Origin: a virus
IMG/VR virus record: IMGVR_UViG_3300049893_001984
Coordinates: 1 to 64,000 of that record
Strand: one strand, 5' to 3'
DNA: 64,000 bases
Positions within the stretch are counted from its first letter, which is position 1, and the number at the start of each line of letters is the position of its first letter. Of this stretch, positions 18,936-60,654 are shown one piece after another. The notes beneath the pieces are model-generated. The model was not told the origin of the DNA. It worked only from the letters and a program-made list of their open reading frames with translations, and ran no database searches. Both the position numbers and the translations under genes were made by a program.

Positions 18936-19667
18936 CTACTTATTTTCTTGTTCAGGAGTTTCCTTCTTAGGCTCTGCCTTTTCGGGGGTCTCCTTAGCTT
19001 TCGCCTTAGATTCTTCCTTGTTCTTCCTATAGTTTTCATATTGACGCTGACTTGCATAGCCTACGCCTGCACCTGCTCCGGCAACTGCTCCGCCACTTAT
19101 CATGCGCTGAAGAAGTTGACGCGCATTAACTTCGTCGGTCATCTTGCTTATGACGTCGTTTCTGTCTGCTATACGCAACATCTTCTGGTCAATAGGCGAA
19201 CCTGGAACATGTTTAGGCATATCAGCTCTTAGCTTTTTATTAGCTGCAGCAATGGAATGCGGCCGCTGAAGGCGCCAGAGATATTCACTAGCTGCTCCGC
19301 CGCCTGCACCTGTCAGACCGCCGAACAGTGCTCCGCGTCCGATAGACCCTATGGGGTTATCCTCGCGCTCTTCAGGAGAGGCTCCAAGGTAACCACCGAC
19401 AGCACCAGTGCCAGCCCCAATCAACCCACCTAGCAGTGTTCTTGACAACAGGGCACTATTGTAAGGGCGTAAGTGTTTAAACCTATGGCCGTCATCCGGT
19501 TTAACACCAGCTGCCGCAAAAGCGTCCGCAATAGCTTTCCCAGCGCCTCCACCACCTCCGCCAGCGGCACCAGGCGGGGGTGCGTCGATCGGAACAGTCT
19601 TAGCCGGTGACACGCCAGTAAGTAGCGGAGTTGAGGCTGTCTTTATCAGGTACTTTAGGTGGTTCAT
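18936..19667 (-). CDS. MNHL-tagged glycine-zipper protein, putative packaged/ejected protein
   Basis: Starts MNHLKYLIKTA; hydrophobic GxxxG segments GGLIGAGTGAVGGYLG and GALFGGLTGAGGG. Confidence 0.75.
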   Translation of the reverse strand: MNHLKYLIKTASTPLLTGVSPAKTVPIDAPPPGAAGGGGGGAGKAIADAFAAAGVKPDDGHRFKHLRPYNSALLSRTLLGGLIGAGTGAVGGYLGASPEEREDNPIGSIGRGALFGGLTGAGGGAASEYLWRLQRPHSIAAANKKLRADMPKHVPGSPIDQKMLRIADRNDVISKMTDEVNARQLLQRMISGGAVAGAGAGVGYASQRQYENYRKNKEESKAKAKETPEKAEPKKETPEQENK

Positions 19668-19678
19668 AGCACTTTCCT

Positions 19679-20305
19679 TTAACTAAACCGAATGGTCCAA
19701 GTCACGCCTATCTGGAAACCTGCTTCAGCTAATATCTTATCAGTCCACCCAGGTGAACCAGCGTAGTATCTAGAGAAAACTAAATCCTCAGACTGGCTAA
19801 GGGGATCCGGTGCAGCGATCAGAGCGGCACCATATACAGCTGAGTTAACAGAAGGTCCGAATGTCTTACCATGGAAACCAACCGAACCTTCTGATATCCC
19901 GAAGAAAGTAGCCTGGTTACCTTCGTACAAAACACCAGAGCTAGTTATGTTCGGATTTACCACTAGAGGTACACGCAGGAAATCTGTGTCCAAGGAGGAT
20001 ATAAGCCCGTTGTAATAATCAATCCCGTCCTCTCTGGTAAAGGATGGATTAACAATTGGGTCGGTTGGAAGTGGAAGATTCTTAAACTCCAAGTACATCG
20101 TGTTTACTGCGTAAGAACTTTGACCACCTAATAGGCGTGCCATAATGTCAGCGCCGCTGTACAAGACAAGGTTCTTTGACTCTATGACCTTCTTCACTAG
20201 ATTGGTTGCAGGATCGAACGAAAACAGACGTACAAAGCCTTGGGCGCTTTTACCAAGGCTGTAGTCATCAAGCTGTTCTTTAAGTTCTTTAAGCTTAGCG
20301 CTCAT
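19679..20305 (-). CDS. baseplate/tail structural protein
   Basis: KNLVLYSGADIMARLLGG motif typical of phage baseplate/tail proteins; synteny. Confidence 0.6.
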   Translation of the reverse strand: MSAKLKELKEQLDDYSLGKSAQGFVRLFSFDPATNLVKKVIESKNLVLYSGADIMARLLGGQSSYAVNTMYLEFKNLPLPTDPIVNPSFTREDGIDYYNGLISSLDTDFLRVPLVVNPNITSSGVLYEGNQATFFGISEGSVGFHGKTFGPSVNSAVYGAALIAAPDPLSQSEDLVFSRYYAGSPGWTDKILAEAGFQIGVTWTIRFS

Positions 20306-20314
20306 CGTTCGCTC

Positions 20315-21916
20315 CTATTGGCATGACATCGAGACAAGTTTAGCAGTAACAAACTGGTCGGCATAAGTTAGCACATTTGGGGGTGCACCTGCCGTAGGGT
20401 AGGCAGTTTCGACAATGGGCCCGCTAGTCTTGAGCAGGCCCAAGGTCTCACCACAACCAGCACCTTCCTCGTCCCCGATGTCGTCTAATGTAACTGTTTC
20501 GAGCACAGGTTCAAGCTCTAGGAATACAACATACGTCGTATTTGGCGGAGTTAGCTCCCGCAAGAATCTGCACACCGAAACTCCGGGCGCGTCTTCATTA
20601 AACGAGGCCTCTCTTAACTTTATGAGAAATAAGTTGTTCCGCATGATTTCATTGAGAACAAACTGCATTGGGTTAATCAGTGTTGGCAAGTTAGATGCTA
20701 CAGGCTCTGTAGTCGGATTTTCCCTGGTGTCTAGGTAATTGGCAAGCGTTTTGCCTGCAGACTTTCCAGCAGCATGGACTGCAGCCCAAAAGTCTTCTAC
20801 ATCACCAGGATAGCCCGAAACCTCAAACTGTACTATCGCCTTGCCATCACCATCAACCCCCATGTAATCCACTGTAACGTTATGATTCTTAACGGTAAGT
20901 GTTGAAAAATAACCACCGCTAAGAAAGTTGGTTCCAAGGGAAAGAGCAGGGAGCAAGGAGTAATCAGGGTGCTGACCGGATAATTCACTTACCATAACTG
21001 CATCAGACATCCTATCACCAGCATATAGAACATCCCCAACAGAGACGATTATATTCGCTGTGAGCGGGAAGCTATAGGAGTGCCCGCTAGTTACAACAAG
21101 CTTCCTGTCAGATTCGGTCTGCACAACCTCAACTGTTTCAACCGGGTTCCTGACCCTGGGATCGCCACTAAGTGCGGAAAGAAAAGACTCAAAGCCTAAC
21201 ATTGAAGGGCCTTGAACGTACATGTCAAACAATGCGTTTATCACTTCTTTTGAAAAACGACTGCTCTTAAGTTGTACGCCAATGGCGTATCCAAAATGTG
21301 TGTAGACATAATCAAGGTCGAATTGACCTCTATACACCCACACCCCCACTTCTATGTCCACCACGTTTCCTTTTGAGTCGTAGACTATTCTCTGGGGAAA
21401 CCTTGTATCTTTGAAAATATCGTTTCTGAGCCGTAGGTAACCTTCGTCTACTTCGTAATCAACCCCGTTCACCAGCACGCTCGTTGGGTACAAAACAAAG
21501 TTCTGCAGTGTAAACGGAAGTGCAACAAGCTTAGGCGGTAACTTGATCTGTACAATCCCAGGCTTATCCTGCCCTCCGAATGTCTGTATAAATCCAGCTG
21601 GCCTCTCTACCACGGATCCATCTTGGGGTCCGTACACAAGGTCGTCCGATCTGTACCTGGAAGCTGTTGCCGCTACCTCTTTCTGCGAGATGACAATAAG
21701 GTGCCAATCCTCCGTGTGGAACACAGGGACTGTCAGACGAGAAACGCAGGCTATGGCTTCGAGCGTATTTATATACGTCTGCCCTTGTTCATTACCCGAA
21801 GCTCTTAAAAACGCCTGAACACGATCTCGCTCTTCAAAGATGTTTACCCAGAAAGACCCGAGCTGCTCAAGCAACAGGCGACCCTGGTCAAAATCGTATG
21901 GAGGGTAGTTAATCAT
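20315..21916 (-). CDS. baseplate wedge protein (follows baseplate J-like gene)
   Basis: 533 aa; position downstream of J-like gene; C-terminal LRELTPPNTTYVVF typical of wedge subunits. Confidence 0.55.
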   Translation of the reverse strand: MINYPPYDFDQGRLLLEQLGSFWVNIFEERDRVQAFLRASGNEQGQTYINTLEAIACVSRLTVPVFHTEDWHLIVISQKEVAATASRYRSDDLVYGPQDGSVVERPAGFIQTFGGQDKPGIVQIKLPPKLVALPFTLQNFVLYPTSVLVNGVDYEVDEGYLRLRNDIFKDTRFPQRIVYDSKGNVVDIEVGVWVYRGQFDLDYVYTHFGYAIGVQLKSSRFSKEVINALFDMYVQGPSMLGFESFLSALSGDPRVRNPVETVEVVQTESDRKLVVTSGHSYSFPLTANIIVSVGDVLYAGDRMSDAVMVSELSGQHPDYSLLPALSLGTNFLSGGYFSTLTVKNHNVTVDYMGVDGDGKAIVQFEVSGYPGDVEDFWAAVHAAGKSAGKTLANYLDTRENPTTEPVASNLPTLINPMQFVLNEIMRNNLFLIKLREASFNEDAPGVSVCRFLRELTPPNTTYVVFLELEPVLETVTLDDIGDEEGAGCGETLGLLKTSGPIVETAYPTAGAPPNVLTYADQFVTAKLVSMSCQ

Positions 21917-21935
21917 CTTATCCTCTAGAAGGAAC

Positions 21936-22097: not shown

Positions 22098-22107
22098 TTT
22101 AATCTCC

Positions 22108-23769
22108 TTAAACAGGTAACGCCGGTACGTTCTGTACCTCAACGTCTATGAATTCCTCTGTCAGGTAAAACACGGTCGTTCTGCTTGTAACCCCTATGGC
22201 TGGGCTATTGGGTATCACAAGCTCGTTCAAGCTGTGCAAGTTTATCGTGCTTCCATCCGGCGCCTTCACATATGCATTCATATCTAAAGGCGACACAACG
22301 AACACACCACTCTTGCCAACGACATCATGTGCAGCATCGTACACGATTGAAGAAGGGAGTCTACCCATATCGAAGTTCAAGGCATTTACTCTTTCAACAA
22401 TCTTCGTCTTAAGATTCTTGACCAGCGTGGTTATATCAGTCGGAATTGACTTCGCAGTGTACAGAACCTTAAGGCTCATTGTTACAAACGCCGGGATTGG
22501 GGCACGAACAAGGTAGTCAGCTGTGGGATTGTGAACCGCCCTTGACGTTGCGTTATCCTGCAAAACCCCGATGTTAGGCATGTGTAGTATGTACACATTA
22601 TAATCCTGAGTGCTAACTCCTTGGGTAAGAGACGTATGGTCAGTCTCTGTATCAATAAAGCGTATAACAGCAGTCTGATACCTAGAGTAAGCGCCCTCTA
22701 CGAGATTGTCCGCGTATGGGACAAACTCGTTTGCTGTCTGAGTCATATCAAGAGCTCGGCTCTCTTGCGTAATCTCAAACGAGTTCTCAGATTGGTCGCT
22801 GGTCGTGGGAAGAACCGCCTCTATTGAGTAGAACCCTGGTGCATCGTTTCTATTAATAGATATCTGCCACGTCTTATTTGGCTTATCTACCAGCAAAGCC
22901 GTCTTTTTAACCACAATGGTTTCAGGGTACGCTTGAGTTCTAGTATACAGGTCAGCCTTACCCCCAGTTGATATGGAGAATATGTTATGCCGATCCCGTA
23001 ACATCTCCGGGTCTCCGTACCCTACTTGGCTTATTGCCGTAGTAGTAGGAACCAATGCCTTTAACAAAGAGTCTACCTGAGCTCTTCCGGACAGGACTGT
23101 TTGCGTCAGTCCATTCTTAAACCTGGCTATAAGCTCCTCGTTCGTCTCTGCGTTTGATCCGCCTGAGAAGTCTTGCGCCGCAAACGAGTCAACAAACGAA
23201 ACCGGAGACGGTGTGATGGTCAGCTTTGTATTTCTTCTGAGCTTATAAGCATCCCCAACCAGCTCCGCTTCAACAGGCACGGTAAAGGCAAATGAGCCAT
23301 CGTTTCTAGCTAGTATCAACCGTTGCGTACTACTCAGCACCAAGGACGGGTCTGTCACTGCAACATAAGAGTCAGTAGTAAGGAACTTCAACCCGTTTGC
23401 TTCAAATATAGTTCCTACGTCTATCGCTGTAGGTGTGTTGGTCGATAGAATTATAGTGGCTATGCCTGACGCTTTTGTCCCAGGGCTTCTAACAATCCTG
23501 TAATTAGAAAGAACACCATCAACGATAGTATCGTCAGCTAGAGAAGGGTCCTCCTCTATAGCTTTCAGGGACATGGAACGACGAAGCCTGTCTAGATCTG
23601 TCTGCTCCAGTACATGAAAAAGGGCGGCTGAACGAAGCAAGATGTCACGAAGAACCCCACCCTCTGTCAGGTCCATCGAAGGGTACTCAGCTTTAAGCCA
23701 TCCGGCTAGAAATTCCTCAGCCTGGGTTACAAGGGCTGGATCCAGTTGGTCAATAGTAACGTTGGCCAC
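22108..23769 (-). CDS. baseplate J-like wedge protein
   Basis: PSMDLTEGGVLRDILL, FSGGSNAETNEELIARF signature; directly after gp25-like gene. Confidence 0.85.
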   Translation of the reverse strand: MANVTIDQLDPALVTQAEEFLAGWLKAEYPSMDLTEGGVLRDILLRSAALFHVLEQTDLDRLRRSMSLKAIEEDPSLADDTIVDGVLSNYRIVRSPGTKASGIATIILSTNTPTAIDVGTIFEANGLKFLTTDSYVAVTDPSLVLSSTQRLILARNDGSFAFTVPVEAELVGDAYKLRRNTKLTITPSPVSFVDSFAAQDFSGGSNAETNEELIARFKNGLTQTVLSGRAQVDSLLKALVPTTTAISQVGYGDPEMLRDRHNIFSISTGGKADLYTRTQAYPETIVVKKTALLVDKPNKTWQISINRNDAPGFYSIEAVLPTTSDQSENSFEITQESRALDMTQTANEFVPYADNLVEGAYSRYQTAVIRFIDTETDHTSLTQGVSTQDYNVYILHMPNIGVLQDNATSRAVHNPTADYLVRAPIPAFVTMSLKVLYTAKSIPTDITTLVKNLKTKIVERVNALNFDMGRLPSSIVYDAAHDVVGKSGVFVVSPLDMNAYVKAPDGSTINLHSLNELVIPNSPAIGVTSRTTVFYLTEEFIDVEVQNVPALPV

Positions 23770-23778
23770 GGTTCACTC

Positions 23779-42904: not shown

Positions 42905-43840
42905 TTAGTAGAAGTCCACGCGACCAACAGCAGCCACGTTGGCAATAGCCGCGCCGATGGACTCGTACGCGAAGAACTCAAGCATGTACGCACGCCGATC
43001 AATGTACATGGTCGTGTCTTCGAGCACGTAGAACTTGCCATGGAACTTCGGTTCGGCAAACAGGAAGACCGTGTCGTCCGGAACCAGGTCGCGCTTGATA
43101 GTGATGATCCAGCGACGGCCCATGAGCTCCTGTTCAGAGAACCCAGTCTTGAACAGTTCCTGAGACATGTCACCGCCGACCTCATCACGTCCAAACTTAA
43201 CGATATCCCAAATCGTCACGTTGTTGATGAGAACGGTTGCCACGTTCAGGTGGTACGGCGTCTTAGGCAGCGTCTTCATGGCCTCAGCCAGGTTGTCACG
43301 GGTAACGCCACCAGTGATCGAGCGCCACTGAACCGTATTCGTTTCAGTGACTGTAGAACCAGCGGAACCGCCCAGAAGGCTGTTCACAACCGCGATGTAC
43401 TTACCATCTTCCTCGGCCAGCATGTCCTTCACGCTGTTGTCAGACAGCACCTGGCGGATGTCGATGTTGTACGTGCGCAGTTCATCCACGTCCTTAATGA
43501 ACTTCGGAGTAAGGATGCGGTCGAACATAACCCGGAAGCGGGGTCCCTTGATGTACCGATTGGACGGCATCGTACCAAAAGGCACGCTGACGGCCGCAGG
43601 ACTATCCGGTTCCTTGTCCACAACCTTCACCGGCTTGTCCGTATCAACCTGGCGATCAAGTTCATCGTTGGTGATAGTGACGGGCGGGAGAATGCGGCGG
43701 AAGAAGCCGTCTTCGCGGATCTTGAGGCGGATATAATCATTCACCGCATCTTCGGCCTGCTTCTGAATACCAGAATCCTTAGACGTGAGCTTGTCCAGGA
43801 CGGTGTTGTTAATCATTTTAACTGTAGGATCGTTACTCAT
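42905..43840 (-). CDS. major capsid protein, HK97 fold
   Basis: 311 aa; IRLKIREDGFFRRILPP, RILTPKFIKDVDEL, EFFAYESIGAAIAN; follows protease/scaffold/decoration genes; strong terminator; GC3-biased codons. Confidence 0.85.
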   Translation of the reverse strand: MSNDPTVKMINNTVLDKLTSKDSGIQKQAEDAVNDYIRLKIREDGFFRRILPPVTITNDELDRQVDTDKPVKVVDKEPDSPAAVSVPFGTMPSNRYIKGPRFRVMFDRILTPKFIKDVDELRTYNIDIRQVLSDNSVKDMLAEEDGKYIAVVNSLLGGSAGSTVTETNTVQWRSITGGVTRDNLAEAMKTLPKTPYHLNVATVLINNVTIWDIVKFGRDEVGGDMSQELFKTGFSEQELMGRRWIITIKRDLVPDDTVFLFAEPKFHGKFYVLEDTTMYIDRRAYMLEFFAYESIGAAIANVAAVGRVDFY

Positions 43841-43955: not shown

Positions 43956-44357
43956 TTACTTGCCCTTCTTTTTGTCTCTTTGTGCGCGTTGCCAAGCTAG
44001 AAGCGCGAGTCCGGAAAGTCCTGGAGGGGGCGCTTCAGGAATTGGCTTGCTGCTGGGGTAAACAGAGAACCCACTGCTTCCGGTTCTCGGTTTTGGTTCT
44101 GGGACGTATTTACTTCCTTCCCAGTTTGGCGTTGGTGCCATAGACACCGTTCCGCCTGCGACAGAAGGCTTGTCCCCGCTGAAAATAGGGTTGTTCAGTT
44201 TTGCGCGCAAACCTTCAGGAAATATACTGGCAACACCTTTACCTGTTGCAGCTAGCGTCCCTCTAGCAACGTCATATAGAGCCCCAAGAGGAACCATGCC
44301 CTCTTTTTGGAGCCCGCTATTAGTGGCTTCTTTAATCAGATATTTAAGGTGGTTCAT
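43956..44357 (-). CDS. MNHL-tagged protein inserted between decoration and capsid genes
   Basis: Starts MNHLKYLIKEA. Confidence 0.75.
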   Translation of the reverse strand: MNHLKYLIKEATNSGLQKEGMVPLGALYDVARGTLAATGKGVASIFPEGLRAKLNNPIFSGDKPSVAGGTVSMAPTPNWEGSKYVPEPKPRTGSSGFSVYPSSKPIPEAPPPGLSGLALLAWQRAQRDKKKGK

Positions 44358-44377
44358 AGCTACAACCTCGTCGTAGG

Positions 44378-44415
44378 GTTAAGGGTGGTTATGCTTAGCC
44401 ATAACCACCCTTAAC
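44378..44415. other. perfect 16-bp inverted repeat without U-tract
   Basis: GTTAAGGGTGGTTATG-cttagc-CATAACCACCCTTAAC. Confidence 0.9.
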
Positions 44416-44421
44416 ACTAGT

Positions 44422-45402: not shown

Positions 45403-46428
45403 TTAAGCACCAGGCATGCCGGGAGGCATTCCGCCAGGAGCTTCTCCGCCGCCACCACCATGTTCGGCTTCAATCTGCTGAATGGCCTGAGCGAGTTCCT
45501 CAGGAGTTACGCCAGCTTCCTGCAAAGCCTGAGCAAGCTGTTCAAGATGCTCGTCAGCTCCGCCGCCTTCGCCACCTTCGCCGCCCATCATATGCGGGTT
45601 ACCAGCCTCATCAGAGGCGGTTTCCTCTGCACTACCCGCTGCCATAGCGTCGTTGGACATAGGAGCGCCTTCGCCAGGCTGTTCGTCTCCGTCAGGTTCG
45701 CCAGCTCTCTTCATGTGAACCTTGTTCAAGCCTGCAATGTGCCCCGCAAGAAACTGAACATACCGTTCGGCATCCTCCTCAGCACTCTTGATGATAGATT
45801 CTACCACGCTTTGCGCGACTTGAGTCTGGGCTGTTTCAGCCTCGGCTGACTTGGAAAACCCCAACTGCTCAGCCAGATGGCAAGCTGCCGCGTAACCAGC
45901 CTCGGCGTCTTCTCTGTACTGTTCAGCCGCAGCCTCTTTGCTAAGCCCCTGTTCTTCCGTGCAACCCTCTTCATGTGAAGACTGCTTCTCCAGCTCAGCC
46001 AGCAAGTCAGCACCTAGTGCCGCCGCTGCAGAGAAAGAGGAGTACTTTTCGCTGAAGGTAGAGTTGCTCGGATGACCGGAAGATTCCTGAGGCTTGTCCT
46101 TACCCGACTTAGGGTGAGCGACATTGCCCTTAACTTCCCCGGCTTCCATCTTCTGCGTTCCAATGGAATCGGCCGGATCTTTTCCGTCGACAGAGTTGGC
46201 GTCTTCCTGCCCGCTGACATTGCTATTAGTATCAGCCGCGTCACCCTTATTCTCAGCGGAACGGGCACCTTCACGCGCCTTCATTGTACCGTCATCCGCA
46301 TCCATGACCGGGTGGGTCGTGGGTTTGGAGGGATCGGTAGCCTGCTTAATAGAGGCACGCTTCTCGGTGCGGACTTCTGTCAGAAACTTGTCCATAAGGT
46401 CAAGCACATCAACGTTCATCTTACTCAT
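45403..46428 (-). CDS. putative capsid scaffolding protein
   Basis: Acidic, low complexity, directly after protease; multiple K-x-A motifs. Confidence 0.6.
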   Translation of the reverse strand: MSKMNVDVLDLMDKFLTEVRTEKRASIKQATDPSKPTTHPVMDADDGTMKAREGARSAENKGDAADTNSNVSGQEDANSVDGKDPADSIGTQKMEAGEVKGNVAHPKSGKDKPQESSGHPSNSTFSEKYSSFSAAAALGADLLAELEKQSSHEEGCTEEQGLSKEAAAEQYREDAEAGYAAACHLAEQLGFSKSAEAETAQTQVAQSVVESIIKSAEEDAERYVQFLAGHIAGLNKVHMKRAGEPDGDEQPGEGAPMSNDAMAAGSAEETASDEAGNPHMMGGEGGEGGGADEHLEQLAQALQEAGVTPEELAQAIQQIEAEHGGGGGEAPGGMPPGMPGA

Positions 46429-46464: not shown

Positions 46465-47916
46465 TTACACTTTAATGTAGTTACGCATTACAAGCAAGGT
46501 GTTAGTTATTGGATCGTTACCCGTGAGACTAGCAAACGACAGCTGATACTTTACGTACTCCTTGGCCAGCTCAGCCGCTTTCACGGAGCAAGAAGCGGTT
46601 TTAACTGATCCAAGGTTCTTAAAAGCAGGCTCATCTCCACGTACCGTGGCGGCTAAAACCCTGCGCTGAACTTTATTCTCTGCGATAGAGTAGTCGTTTT
46701 GCAACTCCTCGGCTACCTTTACCGCCGACAAAGGGTATACATTAGTTGGGCTGTAAGCACAACTATCTATACAAGTTTCCAAGTCGAAGTTGCTTATATT
46801 AGAGTACATACCAGGAAGCAAAGCTTCAACCTCTGAAGCTTCTTTATAACTCCCTTGGCCTGTAAGGGTAAGGAAATCCATTACAGATAACGGAATCTTA
46901 GCAGAACCAAGAGCGCTAAGGGCGTGGGCAGTCTTGTGCGACTTCAACTCTTCCATAGCTTTACTTGGTATGTTCTTGGTGCAACAGCCCAAGGCTAGCT
47001 TGTTTGCCAGGTGCTTGTTGTCAGCACCAGCAGCTACGGCTTCGATCTTCTTCTCAATCTCAGCCAGCTTTTTGGCGGCAGAGAGCTTAACGGCGGCGTA
47101 CTTGGAAGATACGCCAAGGAGTTCGACTGGAGCCGATACCCCCAGCTCTTCTGCCAGCTCAGCTCCGCCAATTGGCCGCTCCAAAACAGAAGCAACCTTC
47201 TGCAGGGACCAAGCTATTCGGTCTGCAGGGCGGACTACCTTTGATATATCAAAGAAGGTGGGCTGGTCGTTAATAGCAAAAACCTGGTGCCCACTCTTAA
47301 TAATAGAAGTCATGTGGTCTCGCAGGTGCTCGCAGTATTCCCCGCGATGCTTTGCTTTGTTACCACAGATAGAACAAATATCGTAAGGAACCTTGGCAGC
47401 CATCGAGAATGGGATGTCTTTACCAGAAGCAAGCTTCTGCAAGTCACCTTCCCACTCTTTATCGTGAGGAACCTTTATGACAAGTTCGCCGCGATGCATG
47501 TCTTTATTATAAGCAGCCGCCTTTATCTGTCCGATAGACTTGGCAGGGTCGTCGTTCTTGTGATGCTTATAGACATGCCCGTGCTTCATAAACGTGCTGT
47601 CGTGCCGACCTATTAGGCCGTCAACCATGTCGTAGTACCCAGGCTGACCCGGCTTAGGGAAAGGGATGGTGAAGCGAGCTTGTTTCTCGTTGAACCCGTC
47701 ACCATTCCTGTTATTGCCGAACATCTCCATAGCACCAAGGGAGATCAAATGAATAAGGCTGTGACCAGGCTCTGGCCGAAGCTCGGCCATCTTAGGAGTG
47801 AACAATGCAGCACGTTTCTGCATCCACGATCGATCTACGCCCCTGGAATGCACATCCATAAGACGTGCAACCGGGGTTCCAAAATCGAATGAGTCGCTGG
47901 TTATAACCTTGATCAT
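46465..47916 (-). CDS. prohead maturation protease (assemblin-like) with C-terminal extension
   Basis: NRNGDGF, HVYKHHKN, and FSMAAKVPYDICSICGNKA...YCEHL nucleophile/Zn motif; position upstream of scaffold and capsid genes. Confidence 0.8.
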   Translation of the reverse strand: MIKVITSDSFDFGTPVARLMDVHSRGVDRSWMQKRAALFTPKMAELRPEPGHSLIHLISLGAMEMFGNNRNGDGFNEKQARFTIPFPKPGQPGYYDMVDGLIGRHDSTFMKHGHVYKHHKNDDPAKSIGQIKAAAYNKDMHRGELVIKVPHDKEWEGDLQKLASGKDIPFSMAAKVPYDICSICGNKAKHRGEYCEHLRDHMTSIIKSGHQVFAINDQPTFFDISKVVRPADRIAWSLQKVASVLERPIGGAELAEELGVSAPVELLGVSSKYAAVKLSAAKKLAEIEKKIEAVAAGADNKHLANKLALGCCTKNIPSKAMEELKSHKTAHALSALGSAKIPLSVMDFLTLTGQGSYKEASEVEALLPGMYSNISNFDLETCIDSCAYSPTNVYPLSAVKVAEELQNDYSIAENKVQRRVLAATVRGDEPAFKNLGSVKTASCSVKAAELAKEYVKYQLSFASLTGNDPITNTLLVMRNYIKV

Positions 47917-47927
47917 GTTTAACCCCG

Positions 47928-48569
47928 TTAGTAAGTCATGTGGACCTTGTCAACACGCTTATCTCCTGTGCTTGCGATTGTTGCAAGCCTTCTTTGCATG
48001 TTGTCAATGTAGCTAGATAGGTACTGGGACCTCGGTATGTTAGGCAGGTCACCTATAGCTGGGCCTGTGTGATGGTTGTGTATATACGCGCCAGGTGATC
48101 GCAGCTGATAGGCAGGCTCAGCAACATGGCTAAGGCTGATAGGCCCTGGCATTATACCTGGTTTTACCACCCTTTCAGAAACGAGCTTATTAACAGTCTT
48201 ACGCGCATCAGATTTCGCCGTTTGTAAGGGATCTCCGCCATAATTATTCCACCCTGTGGCCATGTTTTTATTAAGCGCCTCAAGGCCTGGCTTCAAGGAT
48301 AGCGTAGCGCTACGGTCTCCAGCAGCAGGTGCCATGGTGTGGCTCACCATGTTCATAACGCTTTTAACTCTATCGGATGGAAGGCTAGATATTGCGTCTA
48401 ACTCTCTTTCTCTGCGCCACTGTGGGCCGTACCTGTGATGTTCGTCTCTATACTGGATTGGAACTGGTTTACCTTTGTTAGCTTCGCTCATAAGACGAGA
48501 GCGCATGGCGTGAAATATGACATTATCAGGGTTTAGCGCCGTTTTGATAAGATAGCCTAGATGGTTCAT
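47928..48569 (-). CDS. MNHL-tagged hypothetical protein
   Basis: Starts MNHLGYLIKTA; remainder unrelated to other tagged proteins. Confidence 0.75.
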   Translation of the reverse strand: MNHLGYLIKTALNPDNVIFHAMRSRLMSEANKGKPVPIQYRDEHHRYGPQWRRERELDAISSLPSDRVKSVMNMVSHTMAPAAGDRSATLSLKPGLEALNKNMATGWNNYGGDPLQTAKSDARKTVNKLVSERVVKPGIMPGPISLSHVAEPAYQLRSPGAYIHNHHTGPAIGDLPNIPRSQYLSSYIDNMQRRLATIASTGDKRVDKVHMTY

Positions 48570-49878: not shown

Positions 49879-51270
49879 TTAGTCTGATTTGGCCTTAGGC
49901 TTTGAGGAGGCGCCTGCTATAGGGGACATTAGCGGGATGTCTTCCTGCATGTCGCGCAAACGTTTCTCAATCTGAGATAGCTGGTGGGCCTCAAAAGGTT
50001 CCATTACACCTTCCTGCTGGATAACCTTATGCAGAACTCCACGCATCAAAGCAGGATGCTGACTTGCCAAAGGCGCAAACTGAGCCACGTGGTTGTACGC
50101 ACCATATACTTGGTGCGGCTCGTACGCAGACAGTATAGGGTCATTCGCCACAAAATCATTCAGCATTGTTTTAGTCTTTGCAGCCTGTAGTTCTGCTTCA
50201 TGCGTGGGGTCAAATACATCATTAATAGCGTCCATACGTGTCTCTACGCCTTTAGGCTTAAGCCCCAAAGCAGAAGTCACGCTAGACCCAACGCCACTAA
50301 TAATGGGTCCCTTAAGATCTTCAACATCAAGCGCGGACTTGGCCATACTCTCTTCAGCATCTTCATCGGAAGCGAGTAAAGAACCAAGCAAGGAGGAAGG
50401 TTTTGTGTTTTGTCGCCTTGCTGCTTGTTTAATGGGAGAACGTGCCGCCGCAGAGGCTGCTTCAGCACGGGCGTTAGCTGCTTTCTCACTTTGTTCAAAT
50501 AGAGTGTAGGCTTCGTCGATCACGCGTTTGATCTGACCGTAAGGCTTTTTAGCCTCGTCAAAAGTCATGTGACGACGAGGGTACTCCTCGGCTCGCTTCT
50601 CTTTTAGTTTCCCGACCGCGTAGATCATGTCCATGCAGGTCTTGCCTACGCTGCCGAATGTAGCAACCGCTCTTTTCTCAACCTCAGAGAACGGAGAGTG
50701 CCCGATCGTGTGGAAATATTCAGATGCTTCTTGAGCCAAGGAAGCGACCTTCAAGAACTGGGCTCTATATTCACCGTCGGCGTAGTTAGCTAACTTCTCT
50801 AACCCCTTGGCCTTATCTATGCTCTTTCCGTCAGCCCATTCTTTATCTCTGTCGTATGCGCTCGGTTTAAGAGACCACTCAGTGGGAAGATCGTTGCGGG
50901 CGTAGGATTTCTTGGTGAAGTCAGTGCGCTCAGCAGCAAGGGCGTCAGAGTGCAGCTCAAAAGCCGCAGACTTCTCAGACTCCCACATTGGCTTTTCAGG
51001 ATACATACGCTCAAGAATAGCAGCGGGGTCAGCGAGCGGGAAGTTCTCCGCCCGATCCACTCCGCTAGCTTGCTTCATGTGTGCAAGCGTGCGCGAAACA
51101 TTGAATGCCTCGCACGCACGCTTTATAAGCTGCGGGTTAAACTTGTTAAGGCTAGCCACCTTATGGATAGCATCGGTTGGGTGCGTGCCGCTGTTGCTGT
51201 CACGAATAGCGGATTCAATAGCCTTGACGATTCTTTCTTCGTCAACCTTGCTCAACTTCTCTATACTCAT
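49879..51270 (-). CDS. K-x-A-rich putative internal head protein
   Basis: KVA, KSA, KLA, KVA, KQA, KSA motifs. Confidence 0.7.
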   Translation of the reverse strand: MSIEKLSKVDEERIVKAIESAIRDSNSGTHPTDAIHKVASLNKFNPQLIKRACEAFNVSRTLAHMKQASGVDRAENFPLADPAAILERMYPEKPMWESEKSAAFELHSDALAAERTDFTKKSYARNDLPTEWSLKPSAYDRDKEWADGKSIDKAKGLEKLANYADGEYRAQFLKVASLAQEASEYFHTIGHSPFSEVEKRAVATFGSVGKTCMDMIYAVGKLKEKRAEEYPRRHMTFDEAKKPYGQIKRVIDEAYTLFEQSEKAANARAEAASAAARSPIKQAARRQNTKPSSLLGSLLASDEDAEESMAKSALDVEDLKGPIISGVGSSVTSALGLKPKGVETRMDAINDVFDPTHEAELQAAKTKTMLNDFVANDPILSAYEPHQVYGAYNHVAQFAPLASQHPALMRGVLHKVIQQEGVMEPFEAHQLSQIEKRLRDMQEDIPLMSPIAGASSKPKAKSD

Positions 51271-52126: not shown

Positions 52127-54406
52127 TTATCCGTTAGCCAGGTCAACTTCGGAGTTGGCGTCGTTATCCGGCTCAATAGTCTTCTGCTTCAAGAACAACG
52201 ACAGCTCGCCCAGGTTCTTAAACACATTACGAAGGTTGTCCTCGAGCTCAACCATGTCCTGACGGCCATAGCGGTCTTTGAACTTATCGTTATGCCAATA
52301 GAACATAAACAGGATTCTACCAACCCGGTCAAGGCCCAACAGCAAATCACCGATGTAGCTGTCGATCGTGGAGTCGGTATCAACCGTCTTAACCAACCCA
52401 GAGATGACAGACGTATCGAGAATTTCCTTCTGGCCCATCTGGCTGGCCTGTTGTGCGTTGTTACGGGCATCTTCGTCAATATACATGCTCCGCGTATAGT
52501 TATCACGGTTTCCAGAGGAGTTGATAGTGCCAAGCCCCTGAAGCATGGTTTGCGGATAATGCGTTTTGACCTGAAGCCCAGGTTCGGACCCGTACAGCGG
52601 GTCAGGGAAACTTGCCTGATTAGGCACATCGCCGCTGGCTGTATAGGTGAATGCGTATTTCAAGAAATGAATGTCGCTCTTGCTTCGCCCGCCCTGCACC
52701 TGGCTAACAAGGTAATCAACGCTGTCCTCAGACAAACCCTTATTCTCAATAAGGTCCTGATACAGGGCTGATTTTGTCAGTCTGGCACTATGCTGCCCGT
52801 CCAGAACAACAGTATACCGTACCCCGTCGCTACGAACCTGCAGCTGATGGTAACCTTCCTTCAACTCAGCGGATTTGTAGATGTCAGCAACGATGTTAGA
52901 AGGATTGCAAAGGTTCAGTTTGGGCTGGAACCAGTTGTAACCCTTGCTCTTCTCGTTCTTAAGCTTGATGACCTTGACCTTCTTGCCAATATAGAAAGCG
53001 CTTCCAAGGTGTTCAATGGAATCGTTATCCTTGTCGGTCAGATGGATCGTGGTGTCGTGATTACCGCAACAGAATCTAGGGGTCGTGCCATAAATGCCCT
53101 GCCGCTCGTAGTTTACACGGGGGCTGAACACCTGCGTAGCGTCTGTATGGGTTCTGACAGTGAAGTCGGTCGTGCCTTCGCTGTCAGTCCACTTGGAGTC
53201 AATACACATAGGCATCGTGCCGGTACCGTCTTCCCGTACCAGAACAAAGAAGTCGCCCATGGAAAGGCTACTGGGGCCAGACAACCCTTCAAACTTCTTC
53301 TGCCAATCAGAGAAGTGCTGCTTGGAGGTCATGATGTCATGAGGCGCGAAGAGGCCGTAATCCTTCGTGTCCCAGTCTATCACAAGGGCCAGGTTTGAAC
53401 CTCTACCAGGCTCCAATGCATGCTTGGGCCCGATAATTACCAAGGCTTCAATAGTGTCGCTCTTGGAGTTGACGACGTCGTAAAACCCTGTCTGACCTGG
53501 GTTTGTGTGGGCAGCTGCAATCTGTGTCTTGTACAGTCTGCTCTTTTCGCCGTCTTTACGTTTATCTCTGACAACGAAGCCGCTACACAAGACCTTGGAC
53601 TTCTCGGCCTCTGTGAGCTCTTCTTCGCCGTTGCTGCCATTGAAGGATGTGATAACGCGCACCTTGGGGAAGGTGTGCTCACCTTTACGCATCTTCTTCT
53701 GCAGCTCTTCCTGATCCACAAGGTCCTGAGCGAGCTTAGTGCTGAGCAGTTCGTCAGGGTCGTAGAACTTCAAAATAGCATCAGCAAAGTCATGATCCTT
53801 GCGCATAGTCTGCACAAGATTAATAGCTGCCTTCTTGCCCAGGATCTTAAGGGCGGCAGGGATTGTGAACTTCTCTTCAAGAGAAGCAAACTTCTCAGAT
53901 CGCGGGCTAGTCAGGAAAGCGGAGTCCATAAAATCCTGCATGTCAGGATCCATGCGCGCTCGTATTTCCTTGAAGCTCGGGCGCTTAGCTGAGGCGTACT
54001 TTGACCCGATATAAGGCGTGCGTGCCAGGATATCAAAGTCAGGCTGCCTCAGGCCCAGGCGATGCCTAGGCGTTTTCTCTGTAGACCCGAGGATCTGGGG
54101 TCTACGGTTAAGAATATAGTTAACCCATTCCTCCGTAAGCGGAACGAAGGCGTCCTGACTCTTGATAAACAAGAGTTCATGACCTTTGAGTTCTCCATTG
54201 ATGAAGAACACAGGGGCATACACTAGCTCCGAGCCTACTTTAAAGCCGTAAACACCTACGGCATGGGTTTCCTCGTCATTCTTGTCAATCAACTGGAAAC
54301 CCAAAATGTAGTCGAGAAGGGTCGGAGCCTTGTCACGCATGCGGGCGTAGGCAAGGTCCGAAAATGTCTTCTCATAATTACTTTCTGTAGATTTAGGACC
54401 CGGCAT
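52127..54406 (-). CDS. large K-x-A putative head protein
   Basis: 759 aa; KYA, KFA, KLA, KSA, KYA motifs; GC3-biased codons like capsid gene. Confidence 0.7.
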   Translation of the reverse strand: MPGPKSTESNYEKTFSDLAYARMRDKAPTLLDYILGFQLIDKNDEETHAVGVYGFKVGSELVYAPVFFINGELKGHELLFIKSQDAFVPLTEEWVNYILNRRPQILGSTEKTPRHRLGLRQPDFDILARTPYIGSKYASAKRPSFKEIRARMDPDMQDFMDSAFLTSPRSEKFASLEEKFTIPAALKILGKKAAINLVQTMRKDHDFADAILKFYDPDELLSTKLAQDLVDQEELQKKMRKGEHTFPKVRVITSFNGSNGEEELTEAEKSKVLCSGFVVRDKRKDGEKSRLYKTQIAAAHTNPGQTGFYDVVNSKSDTIEALVIIGPKHALEPGRGSNLALVIDWDTKDYGLFAPHDIMTSKQHFSDWQKKFEGLSGPSSLSMGDFFVLVREDGTGTMPMCIDSKWTDSEGTTDFTVRTHTDATQVFSPRVNYERQGIYGTTPRFCCGNHDTTIHLTDKDNDSIEHLGSAFYIGKKVKVIKLKNEKSKGYNWFQPKLNLCNPSNIVADIYKSAELKEGYHQLQVRSDGVRYTVVLDGQHSARLTKSALYQDLIENKGLSEDSVDYLVSQVQGGRSKSDIHFLKYAFTYTASGDVPNQASFPDPLYGSEPGLQVKTHYPQTMLQGLGTINSSGNRDNYTRSMYIDEDARNNAQQASQMGQKEILDTSVISGLVKTVDTDSTIDSYIGDLLLGLDRVGRILFMFYWHNDKFKDRYGRQDMVELEDNLRNVFKNLGELSLFLKQKTIEPDNDANSEVDLANG

Positions 54407-54449: not shown

Positions 54450-55163
54450 TTAACGGAACATGCCACCCATCGGCATACCGCCAAACCCACCGCTGTACAT
54501 ACCGCCGCCACCAGACCTGGCCAAGTTGCCCATCATTTCATTCATTTCAAGATTACGCTGCTGGTTCTTCAGCGCCATCTGATTGACCTGCTGCATGGTG
54601 CGCGGGTCCTGTCCACCCCACGAGGTGGTGCTACCCATACCAGCGCCGGGGGCTGTGTTCATCCACCGATTATACAGGTGACCGAGCCCAGCTGCTCCAA
54701 CCAAGCCACCAGCGCCAAGCCCGAGCATGAGGGGCCAACCGGCTTGTTTCTTGAAGAACTCTGCGCGAACACGCCCAACAGGCAGCTTGTTGTCATTAGC
54801 CACTTTAGCAAACAACTGATGCGGTATCTTGTTGACGTTACCGGCGTAACCATGGTGGGCAGCCAGAAGCTCGAGCTGGTGAACAGCCAAAGCAGTGTCA
54901 GACGCCATTTTTGGCATCTCCACTTCATTGTTAGGAACTCTACCCTTATCAGTTGCTGGTGCAGTTATGTTGGTGTCGTGCTTAGGAACGTCCATTTTAG
55001 ACGTGAGTGAACTGTTAGGCTTTGTAATCTTCGGAGCACTTTTAGCCCCTTCAGACTGCTTTGCCTCTGGCGCCGCACCTTCATTAGCCTTTTTCTGCAT
55101 CCAATAGGACAGGAGGCTCTTAAGTTGAATGTTTTCGGCTTGTTTTCTCATGCTCTTACTCAT
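54450..55163 (-). CDS. K-x-A putative internal head protein with glycine zipper
   Basis: KQA, KKA, KMA, KVA, KQA; KKQAGWPLMLGLGAGGLVGAAGLG. Confidence 0.75.
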   Translation of the reverse strand: MSKSMRKQAENIQLKSLLSYWMQKKANEGAAPEAKQSEGAKSAPKITKPNSSLTSKMDVPKHDTNITAPATDKGRVPNNEVEMPKMASDTALAVHQLELLAAHHGYAGNVNKIPHQLFAKVANDNKLPVGRVRAEFFKKQAGWPLMLGLGAGGLVGAAGLGHLYNRWMNTAPGAGMGSTTSWGGQDPRTMQQVNQMALKNQQRNLEMNEMMGNLARSGGGGMYSGGFGGMPMGGMFR

Positions 55164-55187: not shown

Positions 55188-57032
55188 TTAGTAACCAACG
55201 CCATCAGGCGGTTTACCAAACTCGGTGCCTTGTGCCAGTGCTGGTATATACGAAGTTCCGTGCACATTGGAATCTCTGCCGCGATGGGTTGACTCAAGCA
55301 ACCCTTTCTTAGACTGCCATCCGCCCAACCTGACCATCCAATCATCAGCGTGCGACAGTGTTTCCATCGCGCGCTGCATTTCAGGTTGAAACGATGGCGG
55401 GTCCACGTGCGCCTTAACAGTTCCGAACTTATGCTCGTCTAAAGTCTTTATTACACTTGGTGTTATCTTTGTTCCTATAGAGTAATGTAACGCCGGTTGC
55501 TCTAGATACAAGCCTCTGGCTTGTTTAGGCTCCAGTGTTTTATGTCCAAAACGAGGTTTGTAGTCGCGGACAAGATTATCGTACTCAACGACGTCATCAG
55601 GAACTGTGTCATGTGGGCCGTCAATATCAGTAACCTGTACGTGATTTATAAGCCCCCTCGATAACAATTCCACGTTCCGTCTATGTGCAGCGAGTCCTGA
55701 CTCCTTTAGTGTTTTGTGCAGGTAATCAGTGAAGTAACGTCTCCCTTCACCAATCCCTTTGTGACGGACAATGTCTGCTGGGTTAGGTATGCCTGTAGAC
55801 ATAATGTCACCAGCTTCCACTTCATCACCTTTCTTTACGTGAATATTTTCATCCGCAGGTGCCCAGTGCTGTGTGTTACCCACATAAATGTAGTTACCGC
55901 CTTGGGGGGCTGGCTCAATCCTCTCTACCCTGCCTTCTACCTGTGAAATGGCGGCTGCCCCTGCAAACGTTTTAGGAACTTGGACTAACTGAGTAATAAG
56001 GTCTAAGCCTTGCTTCGTCTGCTTCTTTACACCAGATACAAGACCGCCTCCATGCTTTGTTCCAAGTTGGCCCTGTCCGATCGGTTCACTTATTGCCTGC
56101 GCGGCTGCGATTCCGGGGTTATCACCGATTGGTGAAAATCCGTTTCTTTCGTGAATGCCAACACACTTCTGGCAAACACCGTGAGAAGACTGACATGAGA
56201 TAGGTGAGCGTACAACTATTTTCTTGTCGCCAAGCGTCTGAAGGTGCTTCGGAGTCAATATAGTTCCAGCCGCAAGTCCACCTGCTGGAAAAGCTAGAAC
56301 AGCCCCCTCATTCTCGGGGTCGCTAGCACTAACTGGCATACCATTAACTGTTCCACAATCCTTCTCGGTAATCATGAGCCGGTGTGCGGCCAAGGCCATC
56401 TGTTTACCAAGGAACCCCGCTTTAGGGGTGGCAAACTTAGTGGCAACGCTGCCCTTTCTAGCGCCGTAAGAACCAGCCCAGTACTGAACAGGGTCAAGCC
56501 CCTCGGCATAGCTGGAAAGAATGGGGATGGGGATAGGCTGATCCTTATGGTCAGCCACCATCAAATCTCCAGCTGTCATAGACCGAAACTGTGCTTTATT
56601 ACCGCGTGACCCGGAGTGGACCTGGACTGCCAATGAGTTATTGTTCTTGAAGTGTTCTTCAAAGTTGGCCTTTTCTACAGGATCCACATACGGGACTACA
56701 GTAGACACAATTTCCTTATCTTTGGCAGTCTGGTCTATTGGTTTGGTTAAAATATTATTTATCTTACCCTGCAACTCATCGCGTAACTTCTTTACGCCCT
56801 CTGGCGGCTTAAGGTTAGAAAGGGAGAAAGAAGTCTCTCTCCCGTGCGTAGTTATGATCTTTGTGGCTATGTTATGCAGCTTCTGATTGATCTCTGAGTA
56901 TTTGTCTGGATAACGTTCGGCCACCTGGGTCATCAAATTCTTGAGACCCTTTTTATCAATAACGCGGCTGCTGTCCCGAAGGTCTTCGGGCAGTGCCTCG
57001 TTAAGCATAAGCTGGCCTACAGTCATTTCCAT
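55188..57032 (-). CDS. rpoC: RNA polymerase beta-prime subunit, C-terminal half
   Basis: SGSRG, bridge helix GLDPVQYWAGSYGARKG...DCGT, Zn site SPISC...CQKC, trigger loop EPIGQGQLGTKHGGG. Confidence 0.9.
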   Translation of the reverse strand: MEMTVGQLMLNEALPEDLRDSSRVIDKKGLKNLMTQVAERYPDKYSEINQKLHNIATKIITTHGRETSFSLSNLKPPEGVKKLRDELQGKINNILTKPIDQTAKDKEIVSTVVPYVDPVEKANFEEHFKNNNSLAVQVHSGSRGNKAQFRSMTAGDLMVADHKDQPIPIPILSSYAEGLDPVQYWAGSYGARKGSVATKFATPKAGFLGKQMALAAHRLMITEKDCGTVNGMPVSASDPENEGAVLAFPAGGLAAGTILTPKHLQTLGDKKIVVRSPISCQSSHGVCQKCVGIHERNGFSPIGDNPGIAAAQAISEPIGQGQLGTKHGGGLVSGVKKQTKQGLDLITQLVQVPKTFAGAAAISQVEGRVERIEPAPQGGNYIYVGNTQHWAPADENIHVKKGDEVEAGDIMSTGIPNPADIVRHKGIGEGRRYFTDYLHKTLKESGLAAHRRNVELLSRGLINHVQVTDIDGPHDTVPDDVVEYDNLVRDYKPRFGHKTLEPKQARGLYLEQPALHYSIGTKITPSVIKTLDEHKFGTVKAHVDPPSFQPEMQRAMETLSHADDWMVRLGGWQSKKGLLESTHRGRDSNVHGTSYIPALAQGTEFGKPPDGVGY

Positions 57033-58896: not shown

Positions 58897-58918
58897 GATT
58901 ACACCTCTCTAAACCGGG

Positions 58919-59806
58919 TTAACCGCGTATAGCTCTCAGTATGTTCTTGATAGTTTTACGCCGGTCCTGGTCATGCTCGTAGGAAGCTTGAACCTGCATT
59001 CCGCCAGGAGCAGGCTGGCCACCTGCACTAGGGTCTGCCGGAGGAGCAGCGCCCATTGACGGGTCTCCGCCAACCATAGGAGTAGGTCCAGCCATATCAG
59101 GGGAAACCCCTGCCCCAATTGGGGCTGGCGCACCGCCAGGTTGATCTTGTCCACCAGCCGAGTCCTGACTCCCACCACTAGACTGGGGGGCAGAACCGCC
59201 TCCAATAGGGAGACCAAGTGCGCCAGCAATCTGCAGCATAATCTCTTTCATGGAGCGCACTTCTTTTTCTACGGCTTCCATGCGTATGTCGTTCTTGGCG
59301 CCCTTACCAGCTCCTTTAGCTCCGCCAGAGTTGGGGTCGTTAGGTGCACCTCCGCCTCCACCCTGCTGTCCGCCCATTGCTTGAGCTGCTTGCATAATTA
59401 GCTGCTGAAGATCCTGAGGCTGAAGCATAATAGGGGCGCCCGGTCCGCCACCTATCGCTGCCGGGTCTCCACCTTGGCTGGGGTCGGCTGGGGCTCCGCC
59501 GCCTTGACTGGGGTCGGGGGGCATCCCACCTGCTGAGGGGTCTTGGGGCGGCGGACCTCCAGGACCAGGAGGCGGCCCACCACCCATAGGGCCAGGAGCA
59601 CCACCACCAGGAGGCATGCCAGCAGGAGGCGGTCCTCCGGCCCCCATTGGGACGAACGCCCTTTTCTGGAGAGTTTCAGCTGTCTTTGCCGCGTTTGTTG
59701 CTGTTGCTGCCACAGCTGCCGCTGCAGCCTGCTTTGTGTGCTGCTGTGCGTAAGCCATTCGTGCTGCGAGTCTGGCTTTTTGGAATACATCGAATTCGCC
59801 TTTCAT
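58919..59806 (-). CDS. Pro/Gly-rich K-x-A putative internal head protein
   Basis: KQA, KTA, KRA then long GGPPP/DPS tract with a central short helix. Confidence 0.75.
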   Translation of the reverse strand: MKGEFDVFQKARLAARMAYAQQHTKQAAAAAVAATATNAAKTAETLQKRAFVPMGAGGPPPAGMPPGGGAPGPMGGGPPPGPGGPPPQDPSAGGMPPDPSQGGGAPADPSQGGDPAAIGGGPGAPIMLQPQDLQQLIMQAAQAMGGQQGGGGGAPNDPNSGGAKGAGKGAKNDIRMEAVEKEVRSMKEIMLQIAGALGLPIGGGSAPQSSGGSQDSAGGQDQPGGAPAPIGAGVSPDMAGPTPMVGGDPSMGAAPPADPSAGGQPAPGGMQVQASYEHDQDRRKTIKNILRAIRG

Positions 59807-59809
59807 GTC

Positions 59810-60061
59810 TTACCTTTCAAAACGGTTTAAGTTTCTGGCAATCCCTGCTCTAACTGGCGCGCGGCGCGCACCAGGTTTCTCGTTTGCAACAAGCTGATCT
59901 ATCGTCTTCTGCTTATCTGCATCCCACACATCCTCTATTGGATTACCATTACTGTCTTTGGCCGTCTGGGTCAAGGTATGATCCATAGCGGCACGACGAG
60001 CCTTCCAAGCCTCAGCCTGTTTCTGTAGTGCCATGCTTATAAGGTATCGGCAGTGGTTCAT
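59810..60061 (-). CDS. small protein with degenerate MNHL-type tag
   Basis: Starts MNHCRYLISMALQKQA. Confidence 0.7.
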   Translation of the reverse strand: MNHCRYLISMALQKQAEAWKARRAAMDHTLTQTAKDSNGNPIEDVWDADKQKTIDQLVANEKPGARRAPVRAGIARNLNRFER

Positions 60062-60654
60062 TCTTGTCTTCCGCTAGCGCGCAGGGATTCAGCTATGAGC
60101 TTAGCTCGCTCTTCCTTACCATATCGTTGGGCGAGGTAACCAAGGCCTCCGCCAGCAGCAGTGCCTATCAAGGCGCCAATGCCTGGACGGCTAGAGTGAA
60201 GTTCGCCTAAAACTGCACCCAAGCTGCCCCCTGTTCCAGCGCCAAGGGCTGGTATTAGCCAAGGATTACGTGAACTTTCAGCTGCTTCGCCTAAAGCCAT
60301 AATTTCCTCTGGCTTATACTTGTGTTTCTTGTCTATACGCCCTTTGAGATGGTCGTTATATAGCGTGTCTACGTTATGGTCTTGTAGTTTGTTTTCTAGA
60401 TAACCAATACCAGCGCCAATACCTCCACCTACAGCCGCTCCAAGCCATGGCTTAGGATTGTCAAAACCATGGCTGGCGATGGCGCCTAACCCAGCACCTG
60501 CAAGTGAATTACCTCCAATGGTTAAAGCACGGGATAGGGGAGGGTTCATTTTATTCCGCATATACTCAGCAGCAGCGCCTTCGTCCAAATACAGGTCTGG
60601 TTCGTGAACAAACCCACTAACTGCGGATTTAATTAGATAGGACAAGTGTTTCAT
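60058..60654 (-). CDS. MNHL-type tagged glycine-zipper protein
   Basis: Starts MKHLSYLIKSA; four GxxxG hydrophobic segments in two repeats. Confidence 0.75.
   Translation of the reverse strand: MKHLSYLIKSAVSGFVHEPDLYLDEGAAAEYMRNKMNPPLSRALTIGGNSLAGAGLGAIASHGFDNPKPWLGAAVGGGIGAGIGYLENKLQDHNVDTLYNDHLKGRIDKKHKYKPEEIMALGEAAESSRNPWLIPALGAGTGGSLGAVLGELHSSRPGIGALIGTAAGGGLGYLAQRYGKEERAKLIAESLRASGRQE

Follow-up and report, generated by a model that had tools for sequence, protein, structure and literature searches.

Five genes in the virion module of an uncultured phage begin with nearly the same 11-residue peptide. We analysed a window of 64,000 nucleotides at the start of one virus contig of 192,334 bp (IMG/VR record IMGVR_UViG_3300049893_001984, labelled G000 in the comparisons below). 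The window is a minus-strand virion module, and five minus-strand open reading frames (ORFs) in it open with the pattern M-[NK]-H-[LC]-x-Y-L-I-[KS]-x-A, which we refer to as the tag:

18936..19667, minus strand: tagged gene 1, 243 amino acids (aa); tag MNHLKYLIKTA, codons 19635-19667.
43956..44357, minus strand: tagged gene 2, 133 aa, basic; tag MNHLKYLIKEA, codons 44325-44357.
47928..48569, minus strand: tagged gene 3, 213 aa, basic; tag MNHLGYLIKTA, codons 48537-48569.
60058..60654, minus strand: tagged gene 4, 198 aa, four glycine zippers; tag MKHLSYLIKSA, codons 60622-60654.
59810..60061, minus strand: tagged gene 5, 83 aa, basic; degenerate tag MNHCRYLISMA, codons 60029-60061.

Tagged gene 1 is flanked by two baseplate-module genes, and its tag is followed by a Pro/Gly linker, three glycine-zipper segments and a Lys/Glu tail. 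Tagged genes 2 and 3 lie immediately upstream of the major capsid gene and of the protease gene, respectively, and tagged gene 4 directly follows an RNA polymerase gene. The start of tagged gene 5 overlaps the stop of gene 4 (ATGA), and the motif L-Q-K-Q-A comes directly after its degenerate tag. In all five cases the ATG is the first start past an in-frame stop 4-7 codons upstream and is preceded by a Shine-Dalgarno-like AGG or GGAG. When checked in the sequence, the five ORF starts and N-terminal peptides were exactly as an earlier reading of this DNA, made from the sequence alone (the sequence-only reading), had given them.

The tag is real and far beyond chance. The sequence-only reading had called for its pattern to be sought over the full genome, and a search of all six frames of the 192,334 bp found no match beyond the five ORFs. 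We compared the N-terminal 11-mers of 1,376 candidate starts, each with every other; of the 15 best pairs, ten fell within the five tagged ORFs, and the remaining five were ordinary paralogues.

Selection acts on the peptide and not on the DNA. Between pairs of tags, 8-10 of the 11 first codon positions and 7-10 of the 11 second positions were identical, but only 2-6 of the 11 third positions were, and we found no conservation in the DNA upstream of the five ORFs. Because third positions vary while first and second positions are kept, we conclude that the peptide is the object under selection, as had been proposed. The claim that the proteins are unrelated past the tag was also borne out: BLASTP of the tag-less remainders found no similarity among the five. 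Searches of the tagged proteins against PHROGs and Pfam found only a glycine zipper, in tagged gene 4, where PF13441 and PF13488 exceeded their gathering thresholds (33.6 vs 28.9 bits and 26.9 vs 25, respectively). Tagged gene 3 had no homologue except itself among 5.8 billion proteins.

A possible sixth, looser tag (MYLKYLITQAV) opens a 324-aa protein encoded outside the window, at 182134-183108 of the genome on the plus strand (L112:2135-3106). It is the sole plus-strand gene inside a minus-strand block of small genes. The protein has an H-T-H-P motif and weak (<0.8) language-model leads to JAB-like toxin domains; atlas look-ups for it and for tagged gene 3 gave low-confidence leads only.

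At the DNA level this phage has no close kin in GenBank: its head module matched none of 50,697 phage records. The nearest isolates by protein were Salmonella phage Arash and three Vibrio phages (~30% capsid identity). RNA polymerase subunits are the most abundant proteins in purified Arash virions (PMC10585845). In IMG/VR a related capsid gene (56-78% identity) was present at 65 loci, in genomes of 150-235 kb, and we fetched the complete records G001-G003 (capsid 74-75% identical) and most of G004 (72%). Peptide patterns from the RNA polymerase and a baseplate protein found no relatives. The virion modules of G000-G003 are collinear gene for gene.

The tag recurs in the close relatives, in every clear case within the virion module. 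There were eight tagged ORFs in G001 (the eighth with an alternative start), five in G002 and five in G003, with the consensus M-[ND]-x(0-2)-[AHP]-[RHKL]-x-[YF]-L-[ILV]-K-x-A. L7 and A11 were invariant and K9 was present in 20 of 22 tags; beyond this L-x-K-x-A core, M-N-x-[RHK]-x-[YF] was kept too. In a six-frame profile scan, tags scored 19-28 bits against a background of no more than 15, and all high scores fell at coding-strand ORF starts. Among the 22 tagged proteins of the four genomes, BLASTP found similarity beyond the tag in one paralogous and one orthologous pair only. Every clear tagged gene falls into one of 11 slots that are flanked by conserved genes of the virion module: after the polymerase gene, between the polymerase gene and the portal candidate, between the portal candidate and the next gene, and before the protease gene (slots 1-4); before the capsid gene, after the capsid block, between the sheath and tube genes, and in four baseplate slots (slots 5-11). 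One slot is often tagged in several genomes, with occupants that have no detectable mutual similarity; for example, the slot of tagged gene 2 is likewise tagged in G001 (MDKKCAAYLIKEA). The sequence-only reading had described the tagged genes as single insertions scattered among structural genes. The scattering holds, over the 11 slots, but many of the genes are positional counterparts in syntenic slots and not free insertions.

The tag also occurs in a distant phage. A back-translated pattern specific to the tags of the window had 0 matches in IMG/VR; a looser one had 32, about the number expected by chance, and the only real ones were G001 and the distant G007. (A 413-kb contig with the peptide MNHRDYLIKTA was dropped, as it has no related capsid gene.) G007 (IMGVR_UViG_3300026484_000382; loci L146-L149) is a 74.7-kb contig of 28% GC with about nine tag-type N-termini, such as MNATQYLIKTA, MRSFYLIKTA, MRAFDLIKTA and MNASDFIKVA. 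Identity in the capsid protein is only 26%, and many of the tagged proteins of G007 have glycine zippers. These nine or so tags in so distant a phage indicate that the signal is old or mobile, and patchy. G007 carries the tag though it is more distant than the tag-less phages G010, G012 and Arash. In Arash we found no shared N-terminal tag; the N-termini of gp221 (MNHNEELLK) and gp212 (MNDQLDYLDK) are only loosely similar and were not counted.

Tagged proteins are mostly basic, and half have glycine zippers. The isoelectric point (pI) was at least 8 for 27 of 30 tagged proteins, 15 of 30 had glycine-zipper segments, and sizes ranged from 67 to 626 aa; every genome has tagged proteins without a zipper. 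The idea of a portable tag thus stood, in that the tag is found on otherwise unrelated virion-module proteins, but the cargo is not arbitrary, given this bias towards basic and zipper proteins. The tag itself is amphipathic, with L4, L7, I8 and A11 as the hydrophobic positions of an amphipathic helix. Its hydrophobic moment was 0.41-0.56, compared to 0.44 for the capsid-targeting sequence (CTS) of phage T4 in the same calculation.

The core of the tag matches the motif that is most enriched in head proteins. We counted all 400 patterns of the form a-x-b in head and tail proteins against per-protein shuffles, with the tagged proteins excluded, which avoids picking a motif by eye:

G000: head, K-x-A rank 1 of 400 (70 vs 40.4 expected, z 5.0); tail, rank 329 (z -1.0).
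G001: head, K-x-A rank 1 (z 6.5); tail, z -0.5.
G002: head, K-x-A rank 1 (z 7.3); tail, z -1.1.
G003: head, K-x-A rank 1 (z 6.1); tail, z -0.2.
Arash: head, K-x-A rank 1 (46 vs 21.3, z 6.1), with L-x-K second; tail, z -0.3.
G007: head, L-x-K rank 1 (z 6.0) and K-x-A rank 7 (z 2.4); tail, z -1.1.

The longer motif [LIVM]-x-K-x-A occurred 26 times in the G000 head proteins versus 8.2 expected, and none of 1,000 shuffles reached 26. In the nine head proteins of Arash (gp218-gp226; OQ632216.1 142729-151607; L066) it occurred 36 times versus 5.1 expected (z 14), compared to five times versus 5.5 expected in twelve Arash tail proteins; the tail sets had no excess of this motif. From these counts, [LIVM]-x-K-x-A is a strong candidate for the head-protease site of Arash. 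The candidate sites there include one ending at residue 29 of the capsid protein gp226, an L-T-K-Q-A in the protease homologue gp222 and two M-T-K-x-A in gp223. The residue after the motif Ala is most often Ser, Ala or Glu. In the window, the strongest excess of Phi-x-K-x-A (Phi, a hydrophobic residue) was in head-module proteins of 463, 237, 116 and 341 aa and in a 759-aa portal candidate. The tag core, L7-x-K9-x-A11, is this head-enriched motif.

The same motif lies near the N-termini of several head proteins. The head genes concerned are as follows:

46465-47916, minus strand: prohead protease candidate (by fold match), 483 aa, directly downstream of tagged gene 3.
42905..43840, minus strand: major capsid protein, 311 aa; I-Q-K-Q-A in its N-arm, at residues 25-29 (43754-43768).
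45403..46428, minus strand: scaffold-like protein, 341 aa, between the protease and capsid genes; Phi-x-K-x-A 3 vs 0.5 expected.
49879..51270, minus strand: conserved head-module protein, 463 aa, candidate core or scaffold substrate; Phi-x-K-x-A 6 vs 1.45 expected.
54450..55163, minus strand: head-module protein, 237 aa; Phi-x-K-x-A 5 vs 0.58 expected, two of them within the first 26 residues.
52127..54406, minus strand: conserved head-module protein, portal candidate, 759 aa; Phi-x-K-x-A 4 vs 0.99 expected.

Nearly all of 30 distinct capsid N-termini (from 55 relatives) have [ML]-[QE]-K-x-A at about residues 25-29. Scaffold-like genes have one or two such K-x-A sites near their N-termini, and the N-terminus of the 341-aa protein has T-E-K-R-A and S-I-K-Q-A. 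Pfam and PDB-sequence profiles found nothing useful for the head genes, and the 759-aa protein had no family match; only its size and position make it a candidate for the portal. A strong GC-rich hairpin (44358-44421, arms GTTAAGGGTGGTTATG / CATAACCACCCTTAAC) separates tagged gene 2 from a 169-aa gene. It is immediately upstream of the ribosome-binding site of tagged gene 2 and may be a terminator or an RNA-processing site in the head operon.

The protein encoded downstream of tagged gene 3 is predicted to have the fold of the T4 and herpesvirus maturation proteases. The gene is kept in 62 of the 65 loci. In the full AlphaFold model the best match was T4 gp21 (Z 8.8), followed by herpesvirus proteases. 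We compared the N-terminal domain alone (predicted template modelling score 0.71) with 48,161 PDB representatives, and again found T4 gp21 first (Z 8.8, root-mean-square deviation 3.3 Å, 129 of 165 residues) and the varicella-zoster protease second (Z 8.0). Only these two reached 8; the next fold scored 6.3. The fold was seen only with a structural aligner, and plain Foldseek of the 483-aa model gave no significant match. In the model, the gp21/assemblin-fold domain spans approximately residues 46-230 and the C-terminal half is helical. Residues 1-37 have a predicted local distance difference test score below 50, and the folded domain begins just after them; this disordered N-terminus ends in K34-R35-A36 (WMQKRA, 47809-47826). 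In 25 orthologues, including that of G007, K34, A36, H119 and S171 are invariant; S171 and H119 are the putative catalytic residues. Complex prediction with full-length protease and tag N-termini scored 0.00, which is no answer and no evidence either way.

Based on these results, we think it probable that the 11-residue tag is a capsid-targeting propeptide like the CTS of T4, and that the phage's protease appears to use L-x-K-x-A and not x-x-Glu. Since unrelated proteins share the tag and its core is the top head-protein motif, it is most likely a label for loading into the capsid that is then clipped off. The analogy with the T4 CTS is sound, because the K-x-A end of the tag is the head-enriched motif, which the capsid protein and the protease also carry close to their N-termini. 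A T4-like packaging tag is what the sequence-only reading had proposed. The portable conserved peptide, the adjacent protease of gp21/assemblin fold and the K-x-A head motif all support that proposal; loading into the virion would follow by analogy. It is the best available interpretation, supported by several independent computations, but is unproven.

The tag would act as an amphipathic-helix targeting propeptide, and its core would correspond to the motif recognised by the gp21/assemblin-fold protease that the phage encodes. Late in infection, tagged proteins would co-assemble with scaffold or core inside the procapsid. The protease would then trim the tag, probably after Ala11, and would concurrently cut at L-x-K-x-A in the N-arm of the capsid protein, in the scaffold-like proteins and in itself, where the first 36 residues would come off. 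The mature basic or glycine-zipper proteins would remain in the head and exit with the DNA. Targeting, the position of cleavage, and ejection are all modelled here on the T4 CTS.

Several alternatives could account for part of the evidence. The tag might be a removable pro-peptide with no role in targeting, which prevents proteins that are membrane-active or harmful in other ways from acting before the head protease removes it, while other parts of each protein direct any entry into the virion. The invariant residues of the tag are exactly L-x-K-x-A, and half of the cargo has glycine zippers, both as expected from such a pro-peptide. But M-N-x-[RHK]-x-[YF] is also conserved and would be needless in a bare cut site, non-membrane, soluble-looking proteins are tagged as well, and a head protease is active only inside procapsids, so its substrates must enter first. 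We consider this explanation unlikely. We would give about the same low weight to an uncleaved N-terminal docking helix that binds a partner in the virion or its assembly (portal, inner capsid wall, or a tail or baseplate part) or the cell membrane. The amphipathic character of the tag and the tagged genes between sheath, tube and baseplate genes fit a docking helix, but it leaves unexplained why the tag core is a motif enriched in head proteins only, and why that motif also lies at the disordered N-terminal boundary of the protease.

Somewhat less probable still is that the tagged genes are a diverged paralogue family, descended from one small glycine-zipper gene, in which the N-terminus is the slowest-evolving remnant and has no addressing function. 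Half of the proteins do have zippers, and the dissimilarity of same-slot tagged genes across genomes points to very fast divergence. Nonetheless, to keep 11 residues while similarity is lost everywhere else still demands that the peptide itself be strongly selected, the proteins vary widely in size (67-626 aa) and composition, and the zipper-less proteins in every genome do not fit. A regulatory element in the first codons of the gene (an N-degron read by a host protease, or a signal for translation or recombination) would be short and at the very N-terminus, as the tag is, but it is very improbable given the randomised third codon positions and unconserved upstream DNA, which contradict an RNA or DNA signal, and the restriction to the virion module and link to the head motif, which would be unexpected for a degron. 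None of the pro-peptide, docking-helix and paralogue explanations accounts for the coincidence of the tag with a head-specific motif.

A number of observations weigh against a cleaved capsid-targeting tag and limit our confidence in it. Several tagged genes lie among sheath, tube and baseplate genes and not among head genes. The enrichment of K-x-A could reflect a structural or scaffold-binding motif instead of a cut site. The fold match of the protease candidate is moderate (Z 8.8), and searches against Pfam (E ≤0.05) and PDB sequence profiles gave no protease match that would place it by sequence among the gp21/assemblin proteases (MEROPS S77/S21). Every characterised phage protease of the gp21 type cuts after Glu (PMC5694885), so that an Ala-ending site would be a departure. 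The distribution of the tag is patchy: G004 has at most two looser copies and no tag was found in the complete relatives G010 and G012, which indicates that the tag is not essential to the clade. That tagged proteins are present in virions and processed there is something we infer by analogy. No cultured phage bearing the tag is known. Virion mass spectrometry exists for Arash, yet Arash is tag-less and the published tables are without peptide-level data; the 'coverage' in its Table 2 cannot be real (100% from two peptides) and is uninformative on N-termini, and the supplement has gene sequences only.

The closest known system is that of T4. The T4 CTS, MKTYQEFIAE, is cut once by the head protease (PMC8442874), and among the diverse internal proteins of T-even phages it alone is conserved (PMC3012670). 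Like the tag, the CTS of IPI, IPII, IPIII and Alt, which is removed by gp21, is an N-terminal peptide of about 10-11 residues on unrelated, mostly basic proteins. Both are amphipathic, with hydrophobic positions 4, 7 and 8, and the tagged proteins have a pI of at least 8, as T4 internal proteins do. In both phages a gp21-fold protease is encoded in the head module and the cargo genes are scattered and fast-evolving; the end of the tag is a motif common to capsid and scaffold proteins, as in T4, although cleavage there is presumptive in the phage described here. There are clear differences. The tag has no sequence similarity to MKTYQEFIAE and no conserved Glu, and its presumed site is L-x-K-x-A versus [LI]-x-E. 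Unlike T4, this phage has a capsid protein of 311 aa, and its virion module includes multisubunit RNA polymerase genes; glycine-zipper proteins make up half of its cargo, and encapsidation and cleavage are putative. Because the CTS principle was already established in T4 (1996), the advance here would be a further variant of that principle and a broader distribution of it, while the kind of system would be a known one.

phiKZ-like giant phages (phiKZ, 201phi2-1, SPN3US) are also large and package RNA polymerase and many ejection proteins. One short motif marks the sites at which their gp21-like protease processes the capsid, the portal and the ejection proteins (PMC5694885). Diverged paralogues of SPN3US keep identical N-termini, 15 residues in the case of gp53 and gp54, and the gp21-like proteases cut after Glu (PMC5694885). 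In contrast to the phage described here, the giants are cut at [AS]-x-E, and most of their propeptides exceed 100 residues, compared to an Ala-ending 11; capsid protein and gene order are unrelated. In phage P1, the first 30 residues of DarB suffice to carry a heterologous protein into the capsid (PMC9024508). Unlike the tag, the DarB signal is known from a single protein, has not been reported to recur on others, and is unconnected with any protease motif.

Herpesvirus assemblin maturation sites have Ala at P1 and Ser at P1'. Assemblin has the same fold as our protease candidate (varicella-zoster Z 8.0), and the candidate sites described here likewise end in Ala, often followed by Ser or Ala. 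They differ in the conservation of Lys at -2 and Leu or Met at -4 of the Ala, where the position of the cut is itself putative.

An extension to the whole clade is more tentative, and we would not yet expect it to hold. It states that phages of 150-235 kb with RNA polymerase genes in the virion module, including Arash, have a gp21/assemblin-fold protease that cuts after the Ala of L-x-K-x-A, and that in some lineages the 11-residue tag is a sufficient and transferable loading signal. If this were true, the set of injected proteins could be deduced from sequence, and the channel-like glycine-zipper proteins among them might help the polymerase and DNA to cross the envelope. The main reading, a capsid-loading tag that is clipped off, would if correct already make the tag a sequence-only read-out of the proteins that this phage group packs in the head and delivers to the host. 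Such cargo, made of fast-changing basic and membrane-active proteins, is beyond annotation by homology search. That reading would also make L-x-K-x-A a new substrate rule for the T4-gp21/herpes-assemblin fold, testable in cultured Arash, whose host is Salmonella Typhimurium.

Other features of the module include the following:

22108-23769, minus strand: baseplate wedge gene.
55188-57032 and 60657 onwards, minus strand: pieces of a multisubunit RNA polymerase.

The second of these RNA polymerase ORFs extends past the window (60657-66608, minus strand, 1,983 aa). It has an insert of about 397 aa (window 63249-64000 and on to genome 64439) with two LAGLIDADG-like motifs; its last residues are V-H-N, and a Thr follows. 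G001 has the insert too, whereas in G002 it is absent and the two flanks are contiguous. An intein that carries a homing endonuclease is the most likely identity of the insert. Near the start of the contig, an ORF at 758-1117 (minus strand) encodes tandem copies of the 11-residue unit SWREAGQELSR.

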